In this document: positions 5,246 to 19,942 of the stretch, in pieces
How positions within the stretch are numbered: position 1 is the stretch's first letter
How the letters are laid out: the number at the start of each line of letters is the position of its first letter
From: Calditrichota bacterium
GTDB taxonomy: Bacteria > Zhuqueibacterota > Zhuqueibacteria > Thermofontimicrobiales > Thermofontimicrobiaceae
Direction of reading: 5' to 3'
Assembly (NCBI GenBank): GCA_013152715.1
Contig: JAADFU010000097.1
Span: 1,276-65,275, forward strand
Length of the DNA stretch: 64,000 nucleotides
Notes under the pieces: model-generated
The model's database searches: none
What the model saw: only the letters and a program-made list of their open reading frames with translations
What the model was told of the DNA's origin: nothing
Program-made: the position numbers and the translations under genes

Positions 5246-6308
5246 ATGGTTGGAATAGTAGGTTATGGCACACAAATACCGCGTTATCGGATTCGTGTCG
5301 AGGAAATTGCCAAAGTGTGGGGTTGCCAAAGTGTGGGGCGCAGATGCTGAATCTTATCGTCGGGGCTTGGGTTTGAAGCAAAAATCCATCCCGGCGCCAG
5401 ACGAAGACACAGCGACGCTCGCAGTGAATGCAGCTCGCAATGCCGTATTGCGTGCCGGAATTGATCCGGCGCAAATTGGCGCTATTTATGTGGGGAGTGA
5501 ATCGCATCCCTATGCAGTAAAACCCACGGGTACAATTGTCTCTGCTGCGCTTGGCATGACGCCGCATACCCACACTGCAGATTTGGAATTTGCCTGCAAA
5601 GCCGGTACTGAAGGGCTTTTTATCGCCATGCAGGAAGTAATCGCCGGAGCCATCGAATATGGCCTTGCCATCGGCGCAGATACATCTCAGGGCGCTCCGG
5701 CTGATGCATTAGAATATTCTGCCGCAGCCGGCGCAGCCGCGTTCGTAGTCGGAAATAAAGATTTAGTCGCCGAATTAGTAGATACGCACTGTTTTATGAC
5801 AGACACTCCTGATTTTTGGCGGCGGGAACACGCAAATTACCCGAAACACGGGGGGAGATTCACCGGAGTCCCGGCGTATTTCCGGCACGTCAAAGGGGCT
5901 GCCTGGGCGTTGATGGAAAAAGTAAATATGAAACCGGAAGATATCGATTATGTCATTTTTCACCAACCTAACGGGAAATTTCCGGTAACTGTGGCAAAAC
6001 AGTTGGGTTTTAAGGAAGACCAGTGGAAACACGGACTTTTGTCTCCTACTTTGGGAAACACTTACTCTGGCGCATCGCCCATGGGATTCGCTGCGACGCT
6101 GGATGTGGCAAAACCCGGCGAATTGATCATGTTGGTTTCTTTTGGATCGGGCGCTGGCAGTGACGCTTTTCTTTTTCGAGCCACAGACAGACTCAAGCAC
6201 GTGCGCGAAAAAGCGCCGTTAGTGCGAAAACAATTGGATGATCATATTATTCAGGTTGATTACGGCACTTACGCGAAATTCAGAAAGAAAATTTTGCGCG
6301 CCGAGTAA
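5246..6308 (+). pseudogene. Hydroxymethylglutaryl-CoA synthase (archaeal/bacterial MvaS type), interrupted by a +1 frameshift caused by a 16-bp tandem duplication.
   Basis: AAGGAGA RBS, then ATG at 5246 encoding [26 protein letters not shown], which terminates at a TGA near 5348. The remaining 347 aa (track ORF 5265-6308, ...[28 protein letters not shown]...[11 protein letters not shown]...) lie in the +1 frame. The junction is an exact TTGCCAAAGTGTGGGG x2 repeat at 5307-5338. Confidence 0.8.
5307..5338 (+). repeat. Perfect 16-bp tandem duplication (TTGCCAAAGTGTGGGG x2) inside the HMG-CoA synthase gene.
   Basis: Seen directly in the sequence. The track translation [16 protein letters not shown] confirms both copies are present. 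Confidence 0.85.
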
Positions 6309-6378
6309 TTTTACTTAAAAATGTGCTTGAGTCAATTATGACACGAGAAATTTAAACTCGTTTACAGGAGGTAAATCC

Positions 6379-16684: not shown

Positions 16685-19600
16685 TTGAACCACATAAGAG
16701 TCATCACAGCAGCGGCGTTATTCGACGGGCATGACGTTTCCATAAATATTTTCAGAAAATTGATGCAAAAACGCGGCGCGGAAGTCATCCATTTAGGTCA
16801 TAATCGCTCGGTGCGTGAAGTAGTTACTACTGCCATTCAGGAAGATGCCGACGCCATACTTGTCAGTTCTTATCAGGGCGGACACAATGAATTTTTCCGC
16901 TACATGGTGGACAAACTCAAAGAATCGCACGCGGAAAGAATTATGGTCTTCGGCGGCGGCGGCGGCGTGATTTTGCCGTCGGAAATTGAAGCCCTGGAAA
17001 CCTACGGCGTGGAACGATTGTACCATGCGCTCGACGGACAAAAATTGGGCATCGACGGTATTGCTGACGACATCATCAAACGCATTCACAAACGAAAATC
17101 AGCGGAAAAGCAGTTGTTCGGCAAATTCATTGGCGAAAAAGTAATTGAGGGAAATTCACCTAAAAATCATTTGACGATTGCGCAGCAGATTTCATTTTTT
17201 GAGGATCACATCGGCGAAAAACAAATCACGACGCCAATTTTAGAAAAATTGCAGCAGCACGACAAAGGAAAATCTGTAGTGCTCGGCGTTACCGGTACTG
17301 GCGGCAGCGGCAAAAGCTCGCTCATCGACGAACTGGTGAATCGTTTCCTGAAAATTGTGCCGGACATGACCATCGGAATTCTGACTGTGGACCCGTCAAA
17401 GCGAATTTCCGGCGGCGCGCTGTTAGGCGACCGCATTCGCTACAACAACATTTATGACGATCGCGTTTATTTTCGCAGCTTTGCCACACGGGAGTCTGCC
17501 AGTGAAATCAGTCTCGCGCTCACCGACGCCATCGCCGTGCTCAAAAGCTGTGGCTTTGACGTCATCTTTGTGGAAACCAGCGGCATTGGTCAGGGCGACA
17601 GTCAGGCGGTGGATGTGAGTGATTTTTCCGCTTATGTGATGACTTCGGAGTACGGCGCCCCGTCGCAGTTGGATAAAATCGACATGCTGGAAATTGCCAA
17701 CTACATTGTGATCAACAAATTTGAAAAGCCGGGCTCTGAAGACGCCATGCGCGAAGTGATGATCAATTACATTCGCAATCATGGCGTGAAAGTGTCGCAT
17801 CGCGAATCTCTGTTTGAACTCGATTTGCCGGTTTACGGAACCAGCAGTAACCAATTCAACAATCACGGCGTCAACCGTCTTTTTAAAGATTTGCTTGATT
17901 TAATTTTGAAGCAAAATAAGAAAAAATATCAGATAAAAGAAAATCTGCTGAAAATTTTACCGACAAAATTGGAGTTCGAGTACGGCCTCATCCACAGCCG
18001 ACGCGTGAATTATTTGACGGAAATTGCCGACACCGTGCGTAAATATCACGAGCGCGCCAGGCAGGAATCGGAGCTTGCCGGTAAATGTTACAGTTTGAAA
18101 AAAAGCATGGATTTGATCGAAGATGCAGCCATAAAAGAAACGCTACACCAAAAATTTGATGAGCTTTGGAAAAAATTGTCCCAGCAGTCAAAAGATTTTC
18201 TGGAAAATTGGCTTGAATTGAAAGAGCGCTATCAGCAGAAAAAATTTCGCTACAGAGTGCGGCATCGGGAAATTGAAGTGGATTTATTCAATCGCTCGCT
18301 TTCCGGCTTGAATATCCCGAAAGTAACGCTGCCGAATTTTTCCGATTGGGAAGAGTTGCTCAAATTTTATTACAAAGAAAATTTGCCGGGCTGTTTTCCT
18401 TACACCGGTGCTGTTTATCCCTTTCGCCGCACCGGAGAGGATCCGCGACGCCAATTTGCTGGTGAAGGCAGCGCAAAAAGAACGAACAAGCGTTTTCATT
18501 ATTTGACCAGAGATGACCGCGCCAAACGGCTTTCCGTGGCGTTCGACGGCATCACGCTCTACGGCGAAGATCCGGCGACGGAACCGGACATTTACGGCAA
18601 AATCGGTGAAAGCGGCGTAAGCATTTGTACCATCGATGACATGGATCAACTGCTGGAAGGCTTCGATCAAACCGATGCGTTGACTTCAGTGTCCATGACC
18701 ATCAATGCCCCGGCGCCAATTATGTTGGCGATGTATTTCATGGTTGCGTTTCGCCGGGAATTGAAAAAAGCAGAAGCGCAAGGCAGAAAATTGTCCTCTG
18801 AAGAAAAAGAAAAATTAAAAATTGAAACATTCCGCAAATTGCGCGGCACTGTTCAGGCAGACATTTTGAAAGAAGACCAGGGGCAGAACACCTGCATTTT
18901 TTCCGTCGATTTTGCCATGAAATTGATTGGCGATGTGCAGGAATATTTTTCTAAAAATGATATTCGAAATTATTATTCAATCAGTATCAGCGGCTATCAC
19001 ATCGCTGAAGCCGGCGCCAATCCGATCACGCAGTTGGCTTTTACCCTGGCGAATGGCTTTACTTATGTGGAGTATTTTTTAAATCGCGGTTTAAAAATCG
19101 ATCAGTTTGCGCCGAATTTGTCCTTCTTTTTCAGCAATGGAATGGAACCGGAATATGCCGTCATCGGACGCGTTGCCCGGCGAATCTGGGCTATTGCCAT
19201 CAGAGATTTGTATGGCGGAAATGAGCGGAGTCAAAAGTTAAAATACCACATTCAAACATCCGGTCGGTCTCTACACGCACAGGAAATTGAATTAAACGAC
19301 ATCCGCACGACGCTACAAGCCTTGATGGCTTATTACGATAATTGCAATTCTTTGCACACCAACTCCTATGACGAAGCGATCACTACGCCGACTGAGGAAT
19401 CAGTGCGCCGCTCAGTAGCGATTCAGATGATTCTTGCCAATGAGATGGGAATGGTGAAAAACGAAAATCCCAATCAAGGATCTTTTATCATTGAACAGCT
19501 TACCGATTTGGTGGAAGAGGCGATATTGAATGAATTTCATCGTATTTCACGACGCGGTGGCGTGCTTGGAGCGATGGAAAAGCAATACCAACGCTCGAAA

Positions 19601-19942
19601 ATCCAGGAAGAGTCTCTCTATTATGAGGATTTGAAGCAGTCCGGCGAATATCCGATTATAGGCGTGAATAAATTCGTGCGTGAGACAGGGGAGACGCCGT
19701 ACGACAATATGAATATTACCCGCGCCAGCGATCAGGAAAAGCAAGGAATTCTTGAAAATTTGACATCGTTCCAGTCAGAAAATCAGTCCGGAGCAAAAGA
19801 GGCGCTGGAACGACTGCGCGAAACAGCGCTGGCGAACGGGAATGTTTTTGAGGAACTGCTCAATACTGTCGAGCGCGCATCTCTGGGACAAATTACGCAT
19901 GTGTTGTACGAAGTTGGCGGGAAATATCGGAGAGGAATCTGA
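16685..19942 (+). CDS. icmF: Fused isobutyryl-CoA mutase IcmF (B12-binding domain + MeaB-like G-protein + mutase substrate domain).
   Basis: N-terminus ...AALFDGHDVSINIFRKLMQKRGAEVIHLGHNRSV...VSSYQGGH matches the IcmF B12 domain. P-loop GVTGTGGSGKSS of the MeaB GTPase. ~500-aa C-terminal mutase domain. TTG start with AAGGAGG 6 nt upstream. Confidence 0.85.
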   Translation: MNHIRVITAAALFDGHDVSINIFRKLMQKRGAEVIHLGHNRSVREVVTTAIQEDADAILVSSYQGGHNEFFRYMVDKLKESHAERIMVFGGGGGVILPSEIEALETYGVERLYHALDGQKLGIDGIADDIIKRIHKRKSAEKQLFGKFIGEKVIEGNSPKNHLTIAQQISFFEDHIGEKQITTPILEKLQQHDKGKSVVLGVTGTGGSGKSSLIDELVNRFLKIVPDMTIGILTVDPSKRISGGALLGDRIRYNNIYDDRVYFRSFATRESASEISLALTDAIAVLKSCGFDVIFVETSGIGQGDSQAVDVSDFSAYVMTSEYGAPSQLDKIDMLEIANYIVINKFEKPGSEDAMREVMINYIRNHGVKVSHRESLFELDLPVYGTSSNQFNNHGVNRLFKDLLDLILKQNKKKYQIKENLLKILPTKLEFEYGLIHSRRVNYLTEIADTVRKYHERARQESELAGKCYSLKKSMDLIEDAAIKETLHQKFDELWKKLSQQSKDFLENWLELKERYQQKKFRYRVRHREIEVDLFNRSLSGLNIPKVTLPNFSDWEELLKFYYKENLPGCFPYTGAVYPFRRTGEDPRRQFAGEGSAKRTNKRFHYLTRDDRAKRLSVAFDGITLYGEDPATEPDIYGKIGESGVSICTIDDMDQLLEGFDQTDALTSVSMTINAPAPIMLAMYFMVAFRRELKKAEAQGRKLSSEEKEKLKIETFRKLRGTVQADILKEDQGQNTCIFSVDFAMKLIGDVQEYFSKNDIRNYYSISISGYHIAEAGANPITQLAFTLANGFTYVEYFLNRGLKIDQFAPNLSFFFSNGMEPEYAVIGRVARRIWAIAIRDLYGGNERSQKLKYHIQTSGRSLHAQEIELNDIRTTLQALMAYYDNCNSLHTNSYDEAITTPTEESVRRSVAIQMILANEMGMVKNENPNQGSFIIEQLTDLVEEAILNEFHRISRRGGVLGAMEKQYQRSKIQEESLYYEDLKQSGEYPIIGVNKFVRETGETPYDNMNITRASDQEKQGILENLTSFQSENQSGAKEALERLRETALANGNVFEELLNTVERASLGQITHVLYEVGGKYRRGI

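Follow-up and report, generated by a model that had tools for sequence, protein, structure and literature searches.

A conserved bacterial gene island joining an archaeal-type HMG-CoA synthase complex to leucine-type acyl-CoA genes

We describe a gene island within a 64,000-nucleotide stretch of contig JAADFU010000097.1 from a Calditrichota bacterium (assembly GCA_013152715.1); this whole stretch is referred to below as the window. The island combines an archaeal-type 3-hydroxy-3-methylglutaryl-CoA (HMG-CoA) synthase complex, a set of genes resembling those of the leucine/isovalerate (liu) pathway and the gene for the fused isobutyryl-CoA mutase IcmF. It is genuine and widely conserved, and represents a form of the leucine/isovalerate catabolic operon that has apparently gone undescribed. 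Comparative gene order shows HMG-CoA as the predicted metabolite joining the two halves of the island, which most likely degrades leucine and isovalerate to acetyl-CoA and probably degrades valine as well. A preliminary description of this DNA had suspected the functional link and proposed a biosynthetic direction; conserved synteny bears out the link, and biosynthesis now appears less likely.

Twelve + strand genes, identified from a list of open reading frames (ORFs) and by Pfam and NCBIfam scans, span positions 5265-20538. The genes and positions reported in the preliminary description are all present on that strand:

5265..6308, + strand: archaeal-type HMG-CoA synthase (HMGCS; TIGR00748, NF003274, 6ESQ_I)
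6379..7536, + strand: acetoacetyl-CoA thiolase (THL), the HMGCS partner (PRK06064, 6ESQ_A)
7536..7934, + strand: DUF35 scaffold subunit with zinc ribbon and OB fold (PF01796, PF12172, 6ESQ_E)
8210..9592 (ORF opens at 8099), + strand: ATP-dependent biotin carboxylase (BC; accC, TIGR00514)
9637..11364, + strand: carboxyltransferase (CT) of 575 aa, from a family sister to GcdA (PF01039, 343 bits)
11361..11978, + strand: biotin carboxyl carrier protein (BCCP) of 205 aa (PF00364, VMKT biotinylation motif)
12062..13228, + strand: acyl-CoA dehydrogenase 1 (ACAD-1; Bcd-type PDB matches)
13392..14180, + strand: enoyl-CoA hydratase (ECH; PRK07468 and PRK05674, both below cutoff)
14264..14926, + strand: secreted octaheme c-type cytochrome (8 CxxCH, signal peptide, PF14522)
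15459..16601, + strand: acyl-CoA dehydrogenase 2 (ACAD-2), butyryl-CoA dehydrogenase type (540 bits to an AcrC/Bcd-type model)
16685..19942, + strand: IcmF, fused isobutyryl-CoA mutase (Pfam domains, 4XC6)
20023..20538, + strand: DUF6125 protein (PF19620, 252 bits)

We identified at least 574 loci related to the CT in a genome scan, of which 80 were kept, and a reciprocal metagenome scan from HMGCS yielded 31 loci with at least 7 kb of downstream sequence. Gene maps were built from tblastn matches of the window proteins within ±10 kb around each match. Taxon names are the labels of metagenome-assembled genomes, some of them clearly mis-binned ('Patescibacteria'). The window comes from candidate division KSB1 (Guaymas), and its CT region matches a contig of 'candidate division KSB1 bacterium 4484_87' at 100% identity. 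Leaving out a BC-less clade described below, the HMGCS block is present in 18 of 28 well-flanked CT loci, in three gene orders, under the labels KSB1, Aminicenantes, Acidobacteria, Chrysiogenales, Phycisphaerae, Eisenbacteria and Myxococcota. A fourth order occurs in operons with a canonical 3-methylcrotonyl-CoA carboxylase (MCC):

Order 1: HMGCS-THL-DUF35-BC-CT-BCCP-ACAD1-ECH (KSB1, Aminicenantes, Acidobacteria, Chrysiogenales)
Order 2: HMGCS-THL-DUF35-ECH-BC-CT-BCCP, often a tight operon (Phycisphaerae/Planctomycetota, Eisenbacteria, Myxococcota)
Order 3: BC-CT-BCCP, then ECH-DUF35-THL-HMGCS on the opposite strand (L025, L035, L038, L049)
Order 4 (canonical MCC): HMGCS-THL-DUF35-MCCbeta-ECH-BC-BCCP-ACAD

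One locus (L056) is a tight single operon with gaps of 0-28 bp. Another (L166), on a closed 3.3-Mb contig, carries order 4 as one operon in which neighbouring genes are 3-43 bp apart or, in one case, overlap by 11 bp; its HMGCS has its nearest named relatives under the label Aminicenantales. Sequences that carry the operon include KSB1 4484_87 (NATN01), Phycisphaerales bin220 (CP070772.1) and a 3.3-Mb contig, ERZ25039515:contig_32560. Every HMGCS-linked CT locus includes a dedicated ATP-grasp BC. Conservation of the neighbourhood holds across phyla and in both search directions. Synteny in several orders and phyla, together with the tight operons L166 and L056, supports the view that the HMGCS complex is functionally joined to the liu-type genes through HMG-CoA.

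Two kinds of carboxylase alternate in these operons. A carboxylase lies directly downstream of HMGCS-THL-DUF35 in 17 of the 31 reciprocal loci, where it is a GcdA-like CT (6 loci) or a canonical MCC-beta (11 loci); 14 loci have no carboxylase, and HMG-CoA reductase occupies this position in none (0). The canonical MCC-beta (535 aa) is 59-69% identical to the MCC-beta of Rhizobium, human and M. tuberculosis. It fills the post-DUF35 slot in at least 13 homologous loci when shorter ones are included, and these sister operons carry a split MCC-alpha, with BC and BCCP as separate proteins. Since two non-orthologous carboxylases alternate in homologous operons, 3-methylcrotonyl-CoA/HMG-CoA would be their shared chemistry. 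This alternation is the strongest evidence for the predicted carboxylation of 3-methylcrotonyl-CoA by the new CT family. In an HMGCS tree (all trees are neighbour-joining trees), the carboxylase-linked HMGCSs all fall in one derived bacterial clade, outside which lie basal clades without a linked carboxylase and L147. This shorter locus encodes HMGCS-THL-DUF35 followed by a genuine HMG-CoA reductase (PF00368, 384 bits) and serves as a positive control for a mevalonate context.

The first three genes of the island encode an apparently intact complex. HMGCS matches TIGR00748 (477 bits, cutoff 353), NF003274 (486 bits, cutoff 244) and 6ESQ_I (418 bits, E 2.6e-124), and alignment to 6ESQ_I shows that the catalytic Glu/Cys/His motifs are kept (GSESHPY, EFACKAGT and FHQPNG). 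The thiolase matches 6ESQ_A (359 bits) and PRK06064 (538 bits, cutoff 420), scores 519 bits against the archaeal equivalog NF053570 (cutoff 600), and retains the active-site features Cys83 and an HDxF motif (HDCF at residue 283). DUF35 matches 6ESQ_E (119.5 bits), and its start codon is overlapped by the thiolase stop codon. Judged from its sequence, the triplet, with all three subunits encoded by contiguous genes, is of the archaeal thiolase/HMGCS/DUF35 type. PhlABC and MucABC, bacterial complexes that have been repurposed, no longer have the catalytic residues of either enzyme (PMC12960953).

The same three genes stand where canonical liu clusters have an HMG-CoA lyase and an acetoacetate-CoA ligase. 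Canonical clusters in Azospirillum (L084) and Legionella (L085) read IVD-thiolase-(ACAD)-MCCbeta-LiuC-MCCalpha-HMG-CoA lyase (IVD, isovaleryl-CoA dehydrogenase), and acetoacetate-CoA ligase follows in Legionella. We detected no HMG-CoA lyase in the window by tblastn with two real lyases, a motif scan or Pfam scans of large ORFs, in agreement with the preliminary description. Pfam and motif scans and tblastn likewise yielded no acetoacetate-CoA ligase, HMG-CoA reductase or GHMP/mevalonate kinase in the window. Across the window and 160 loci (~2.1 Mb), neither HMG-CoA lyase nor acetoacetate-CoA ligase gave a tblastn match. HMG-CoA reductase and GHMP kinase signatures were absent from the window and from ±10 kb in 159 of the 160 loci, the L147 reductase being the sole exception. 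Full-text literature searches, which did not extend to subscription journals, turned up no account of an HMGCS complex within a liu-type operon, nor of HMGCS running in reverse during leucine breakdown.

The carboxylase of the window consists of three separate subunits. It lacks a fused BC-BT-BCCP alpha subunit; BC (~460 aa) and BCCP are encoded separately, with the CT gene between them, and BC adjoins CT in 28 of 32 well-flanked loci. BC scores 654 bits against TIGR00514 (cutoff 626.5). Its domain begins at residue 45, so the true start is likely M38 (nt 8210). The BCCP biotinylation motif, around K165, has the unusual form VMKT. An extra N-terminal region of ~125 aa in BCCP resembles a second, degenerate biotinyl/lipoyl-like domain; similarity to the BT domain of MCC-alpha was not detectable, and that assignment was rejected. 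Single-sequence AlphaFold models were of low confidence (mean pLDDT 31.7 for BCCP and 50.6 for DUF6125).

Several observations indicate that the CT belongs to a new family sister to GcdA, the alpha subunit of glutaconyl-CoA decarboxylase, rather than to the beta subunits of MCC or propionyl-CoA carboxylase (PCC). Identity to reference proteins is 33-38% at most (33-34% to GcdA), and scores are equal for MCC-beta (242-254 bits) and GcdA (248-253 bits) and lower for PCC-beta structures (170-200 bits). A tree of 425 columns with 500 bootstraps groups the CT family with GcdA at 100% and with MCC-beta at 0%, at variance with the MCC-type carboxyltransferase first proposed. Finally, CT and GcdA have in common a loop insertion of ~16-19 aa (window residues ~359-376) and a C-terminal region that are absent from MCC-beta. 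The preliminary description had also allowed for a place among propionyl-CoA carboxylases; PCC-beta is the most distant reference, and the Sinorhizobium protein that served as tree outgroup is 31% identical to the CT. Pfam scans of island and window ORFs revealed no OAD_beta-type (GcdB) membrane subunit.

A sister clade of the CT family (L017, L019-L022, L039, L044, L057; ~67-71% identical; Planctomycetota and Ca. Uabimicrobium labels) has CT-BCCP without a BC within 10 kb. One of its loci, L022, has a methylmalonyl-CoA mutase 3' of CT-BCCP and an undecaprenyl-diphosphate synthase gene 5'. These BC-less CTs may be decarboxylases or transcarboxylases. A propionyl-CoA function, suggested by the NCBI name and by the mutase of L022, was rejected for the HMGCS-linked members because the mutase-adjacent locus sits in this separate BC-less clade and PCC-beta is the most distant reference. 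A glutaryl-CoA/glutaconyl-CoA/crotonyl-CoA pathway was also rejected; it leaves HMGCS, the LiuC-like ECH, BC and the replacement by canonical MCC unexplained.

ACAD-1 is retained beside the carboxylase in KSB1, Aminicenantes and Acidobacteria loci. Its best PDB matches are of the Bcd (butyryl-CoA dehydrogenase) type, at 363 bits versus 264-273 bits for IVD, and its identity to three IVDs (38-40%) does not exceed that to other acyl-CoA dehydrogenases. ACAD-1 reads 'LDRGR...EIGEGT' where true IVDs read 'LDYER...EIGAGT'; the catalytic Glu is at the position used by short-chain acyl-CoA dehydrogenase (SCAD), and a Gly occupies the position of the IVD base. With this SCAD/Bcd-type catalytic base, the isovaleryl-CoA dehydrogenase label of the preliminary description does not stand as orthology, and we predict that ACAD-1 is a functional analogue of isovaleryl-CoA dehydrogenase. 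The 'IGEGT' motif is common to ACAD-1 and the dehydrogenases of the canonical-MCC operons, and ACAD-2 keeps the classical 'IYEGT'. Loss of that Tyr, as in the IVD structure, widens the pocket for a 3-methyl branch. The motif pattern fits putative roles for ACAD-1 on isovaleryl-CoA and for ACAD-2 on butyryl-CoA.

The ECH is a probable 3-methylglutaconyl-CoA hydratase similar to LiuC. Its nearest annotated relatives (~41% identical) belong to the liu clusters of Azospirillum and Legionella, where they take the LiuC position between the MCC-beta and MCC-alpha genes, and its best NCBIfam models, of the methylglutaconyl/carboxygeranoyl-CoA hydratase type, score 240 (PRK07468) and 233 (PRK05674), below their cutoffs of 350 and 426. 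In Phycisphaerae/Eisenbacteria operons the ECH sits between DUF35 and BC. The cytochrome encoded between the hydratase and ACAD-2 (14264-14926; signal peptide, exactly 8 CxxCH), which a non-coding gap of ~530 bp follows, was considered as a pathway component and rejected. It is not conserved in relatives, and the closest of these (L003) has a 517-aa protein sorted by the type IX secretion system (T9SS) in that slot. The cytochrome is a lineage-specific insertion outside the conserved module.

ACAD-2, IcmF and DUF6125 form a second recurring module, probably for isobutyryl/butyryl-CoA. IcmF unites a B12 domain, a MeaB GTPase and a mutase in one chain and matches 4XC6 over its full length (1223 bits). 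The ACAD2-IcmF-DUF6125 module recurs beside the cluster in five places:

Window and L003: downstream of the cluster (in L003, DUF6125 was undetected and IcmF ends ~580 bp before the end of the locus)
L012 and L016: directly upstream of HMGCS
L102: divergently upstream, beside the canonical-MCC version and with PCC-beta

DUF6125, which had no part in the preliminary description, belongs to this module. It lies directly beside IcmF in several phyla (L012 4304-4828, L016 4385-4906, L102 4439-4954), and in L014 (~119-) it is found at the contig edge, where IcmF would fall off the contig. DUF6125 could be an IcmF accessory factor, as its position suggests. Residue ~583 of IcmF (motif AVYPF), which we take to be the equivalent of Phe598 in the substrate-pocket pair of C. 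metallidurans IcmF (Phe598 and Gln742), is Tyr in the window and Phe in the syntenic L003, L012, L016 and L102; the Gln742 equivalent is conserved. The Tyr may indicate an altered substrate preference. The simplest reading of the module is catabolism of valine or isobutyrate (isobutyryl-CoA to butyryl-CoA, crotonyl-CoA and acetoacetyl-CoA). IcmF may also act on isovaleryl/pivalyl-CoA, an idea raised in the preliminary description.

Neighbouring genes speak to the direction of the pathway. Three loci encode a two-subunit 2-oxoacid:ferredoxin oxidoreductase between the carboxylase genes and the divergent ECH-DUF35-THL-HMGCS genes (L035 15376-17990, L038 12912-15418, L049 7515-9961). This is likely an entry enzyme that converts 2-oxoisocaproate to isovaleryl-CoA. 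In L003 and L166 the cluster directly adjoins beta-oxidation genes (ACAD, ECH, 3-hydroxyacyl-CoA dehydrogenase and thiolase), and L166 also has peptidases next to it. A pair of GctAB-type CoA-transferase genes, together with a gene of the acetyl-CoA hydrolase/transferase family, lies divergently upstream of the canonical-MCC operon in L166 (5954-9816) and also in L097, L104, L106, L134 and L141; isovalerate, acetoacetate and methylglutaconate are candidate substrates. The PF01144 genes beside L166 were considered as AibA/B-type decarboxylases and rejected, since they are GctA-like (239 bits to 1POI versus 102 bits to AibA) and limited to one subgroup. No AibA/B (PF01144) homologue was detected in the window by tblastn. 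The catabolic direction is favoured because an ATP-dependent BC is always linked, canonical MCC occurs in the sister operons and the neighbours are catabolic.

These observations suggest the following route. Isovaleryl-CoA, derived from leucine via the 2-oxoacid oxidoreductase or from isovalerate, would be oxidized to 3-methylcrotonyl-CoA by ACAD-1. The three-subunit ATP-dependent carboxylase (BC, GcdA-like CT and BCCP) would convert this to 3-methylglutaconyl-CoA, and the LiuC-like hydratase would form HMG-CoA. HMGCS would then run in reverse, converting HMG-CoA and CoA to acetoacetyl-CoA and acetyl-CoA in an uphill step, and the thiolase would cleave the channelled acetoacetyl-CoA at once in a downhill step. 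The net reaction would be HMG-CoA + 2 CoA to 3 acetyl-CoA, with no free acetoacetate and with both thioesters conserved. ATP-driven carboxylation would push the sequence, acetyl-CoA consumption would pull it, and channelling would hide the unfavourable intermediate. Relative to a lyase followed by acetoacetate activation, the saving would be one thioester (CoA-transferase route) or two ATP equivalents (ligase route). IcmF and ACAD-2, perhaps with DUF6125, would bring valine-derived isobutyryl-CoA via butyryl-CoA and crotonyl-CoA to the same acetoacetyl-CoA/thiolase node.

By textbook values the energetics of thiolase and HMGCS nearly cancel and the summed reaction is near equilibrium, so it should be reversible under push and pull. 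Chemical precedent exists in the reversed citrate synthase of the reversed oxidative tricarboxylic acid (TCA) cycle (Desulfurella, Thermosulfidibacter). In the archaeal complex, an unfavourable reaction of the thiolase is coupled to a favourable one of HMGCS (PMC12960953, citing Voegeli 2018). We infer which substrates ACAD-1 and the GcdA-like carboxylase use, that the route is catabolic and that HMGCS is reversed, the last being the pivotal step. On balance we lean, modestly, towards a catabolic route in which the HMGCS/thiolase/DUF35 complex cleaves HMG-CoA to three acetyl-CoA. A further, more tentative proposal, in which we have somewhat less faith, is that the complex may be a dedicated, channelled machine for thiolytic cleavage of HMG-CoA. 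By saving one to two ATP equivalents it would make fermentative or syntrophic oxidation of leucine and isovalerate viable and would be common in uncultured anaerobic sediment phyla (Aminicenantes, KSB1, Phycisphaerae, Eisenbacteria). It would be accompanied by a three-subunit 3-methylcrotonyl-CoA carboxylase derived from GcdA that arose independently of MCC.

Several points weigh against this catabolic route. HMGCS is usually treated as physiologically irreversible, and we know of no demonstrated net reversal. The preference of the GcdA-like CT for a 3-methyl substrate is suggested by context, and its BC-less sister clade (~70% identical) includes L022, beside a mutase. The absence of lyase covers the 64-kb window and ±10 kb of 160 loci rather than whole genomes. 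As many as 14 of the 31 well-flanked HMGCS loci have no nearby carboxylase, and an Acidobacteriota clade has BC-CT-BCCP without a linked HMGCS. In the window, with gaps of ~275 bp between DUF35 and BC and of 532 bp before ACAD-2, the island may comprise more than one transcription unit. Finally, Desulfococcus multivorans, a characterised anaerobic isovalerate degrader, induces a lyase (PMC5109826).

It is unlikely, in our view, that the complex instead runs forward as a convergent HMG-CoA supply for a mevalonate pathway, with liu-type enzymes adding leucine carbon and the reductase encoded elsewhere. The complex is an established mevalonate entry in archaea (PMC12960953) and the window proteins match its 6ESQ chains; L147 places a genuine reductase after the same three genes; both branches meet at HMG-CoA; and leucine-to-isoprenoid/sterol flow is known in some organisms, for example trypanosomatids (PMC5993337). 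However, the window has no reductase or mevalonate kinase, and the single reductase among the 160 loci, that of L147, falls outside the carboxylase-linked clade. Co-transcription of a housekeeping isoprenoid entry with an inducible-type catabolic operon in many phyla would be hard to rationalise, the carbon flux of leucine catabolism is far above isoprenoid demand, and many bacteria generally use the MEP (methylerythritol phosphate) pathway (PMC12960953).

We also consider it quite unlikely that the island serves canonical leucine catabolism with a lyase encoded elsewhere and a complex that acts mainly as an acetoacetyl-CoA thiolase, or forms HMG-CoA for another purpose. The absence of lyase is local, a thiolase is part of canonical liu clusters, D. 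multivorans relies on a lyase (PMC5109826), and in one Aminicenantes subgroup the operon has beside it a GctA-type CoA-transferase that could activate acetoacetate. That enzyme, however, is limited to the one subgroup. A plain thiolase needs neither HMGCS nor DUF35, yet all three proteins are intact and travel with the carboxylase and hydratase. Moreover, canonical liu operons hold the lyase internally, as 0 of the 160 loci do.

A biosynthetic role is very unlikely. As first proposed, a biotin enzyme would stand in for AibA/B: acetyl-CoA would be converted via HMG-CoA to 3-methylglutaconyl-CoA, which after biotin-dependent decarboxylation and reduction by ACAD-1 would give isovaleryl-CoA for iso-branched lipids, with IcmF providing isobutyryl/pivalyl units. 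The CT is sister to a decarboxylase subunit, GcdA, and ACAD-1 resembles Bcd-type enzymes, which are reductases in clostridia. Biotin carboxylations are reversible in vitro, and the Myxococcus HMGCS gene mvaS is clustered with aibA/B/C. However, a decarboxylase needs no ATP-grasp BC, yet BC is invariably linked, and reversing an ATP-dependent carboxylase against the cellular ATP/ADP ratio would presumably be unfavourable. The sister operons use canonical MCC-beta with split MCC-alpha, the neighbours are catabolic, the window has no AibA/B homologue, and the PF01144 pair found elsewhere is GctA-like, as described above.

That a mevalonate-entry operon merely happens to adjoin a liu-type operon, the fallback offered in the preliminary description and compatible with the ~275-bp gap between the blocks and with uninformative promoter and terminator scans, can be dismissed as very improbable given conserved linkage in at least four gene orders, in many phyla and both search directions, with two non-orthologous CTs and in tight operons.

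The promoter/terminator scan, which covered 4900-20700, returned counts equal to those of shuffled sequence and gave no operon boundaries. Rfam and tRNA scans of the window gave no matches, including no B12 riboswitch near IcmF. The island is flanked by genes for T9SS-sorted and PorV-like proteins, TonB-dependent receptors, peptidases and a sodium:alanine symporter. Directly 5' of HMGCS is a 256-aa ORF (4199-4969) with no Pfam match, which relatives lack at this position; in L003 the place is taken by beta-oxidation genes. Several genes around the island encode proteins of calcineurin-like or purple-acid-phosphatase type (2863-4044, 20567-23638 and 56946-58334), and at least that at 20567-23638 carries a T9SS sorting domain. 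Two paralogous three-gene cassettes on the - strand (30240-37676 and 38147-44921) each encode a PorV-like protein, a ~940-1060-aa protein without a Pfam match and a TonB-dependent receptor with a carboxypeptidase-regulatory-like domain. GC content is markedly low (0.33) in the first ~2 kb of the window.

If the proposed cleavage of HMG-CoA is correct, an enzyme pair known only as an isoprenoid entry would also be an energy-conserving exit from leucine catabolism, in parallel with the discovery of citrate synthase reversal in energy-starved anaerobes. The lineages concerned are abundant in anoxic sediments and digesters, where detrital protein is believed to sustain them. The saving would be large for fermentative or syntrophic organisms that have spent one ATP on carboxylation, and estimates of the ATP gained and spent in degrading protein and branched-chain fatty acids in these environments would need revision. 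The GcdA-like CT with its ATP-dependent BC would represent a new biotin carboxylase lineage. Automated annotation assigns these genes to the mevalonate pathway or to propionyl-CoA carboxylase, which would then mislead metabolic reconstructions of these phyla.

The island resembles several known systems. It would carry out the same reactions to HMG-CoA as the Pseudomonas-type Liu pathway (liuABCDE), namely acyl-CoA dehydrogenation, biotin-dependent carboxylation and LiuC-type hydration. The canonical-MCC operons retain the liuB-liuC-liuD order, and the window ECH is ~41% identical to the LiuC-slot ECH. Unlike that pathway, the island has HMGCS/thiolase/DUF35 in place of the liuE lyase or acetoacetate-CoA ligase, a GcdA-like CT with separate BC and BCCP, and a dehydrogenase with Glu at the SCAD rather than the IVD position. 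The isovaleryl-CoA pathway of Myxococcus xanthus (MvaS, LiuC, AibA/B, AibC) likewise clusters an HMGCS with enzymes that interconvert HMG-CoA, 3-methylglutaconyl-CoA, 3-methylcrotonyl-CoA and isovaleryl-CoA. The island has an ATP-dependent carboxylase instead of an AibA/B-type decarboxylase and lacks an AibC-type reductase, its HMGCS is of the archaeal complex type, and its direction would be opposite. The window ECH scores only ~98 bits against 5JBX, which we take to be M. xanthus LiuC.

Individual components can be compared in the same way. As in the archaeal complex (6ESQ), all three subunits are co-encoded (418, 359 and 119.5 bits to its chains), and the window enzymes keep their catalytic residues, unlike PhlABC and MucABC. 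The window version is bacterial and embedded in a leucine-catabolic operon rather than a mevalonate pathway, and its proposed direction is cleavage, not synthesis. GcdA (PDB 1PIX, 3GF3) is the closest clade to the CT, has the insertion and C-terminal region in common with it, and transfers a carboxyl group at the gamma carbon of an enoyl-CoA, the same chemistry; the CT differs in its partner, an ATP-dependent BC rather than the membrane sodium pump GcdB, and in its predicted action as a carboxylase on a 3-methyl substrate. IcmF has the same three-domain fusion as 4XC6 and a conserved Gln742 equivalent, but differs in the Tyr at the Phe598 equivalent and in its Bcd-type ACAD and DUF6125 companions. 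Finally, reversed citrate synthase offers a mechanistic analogy only. It is a Claisen-condensing, thioester-hydrolysing synthase, formerly considered irreversible, that runs backwards in energy-limited anaerobes, where it replaces an ATP-costly or energy-wasting lyase route. It belongs to another enzyme family and pathway, and the putative reversal in the island would be assisted by a channelled thiolase.

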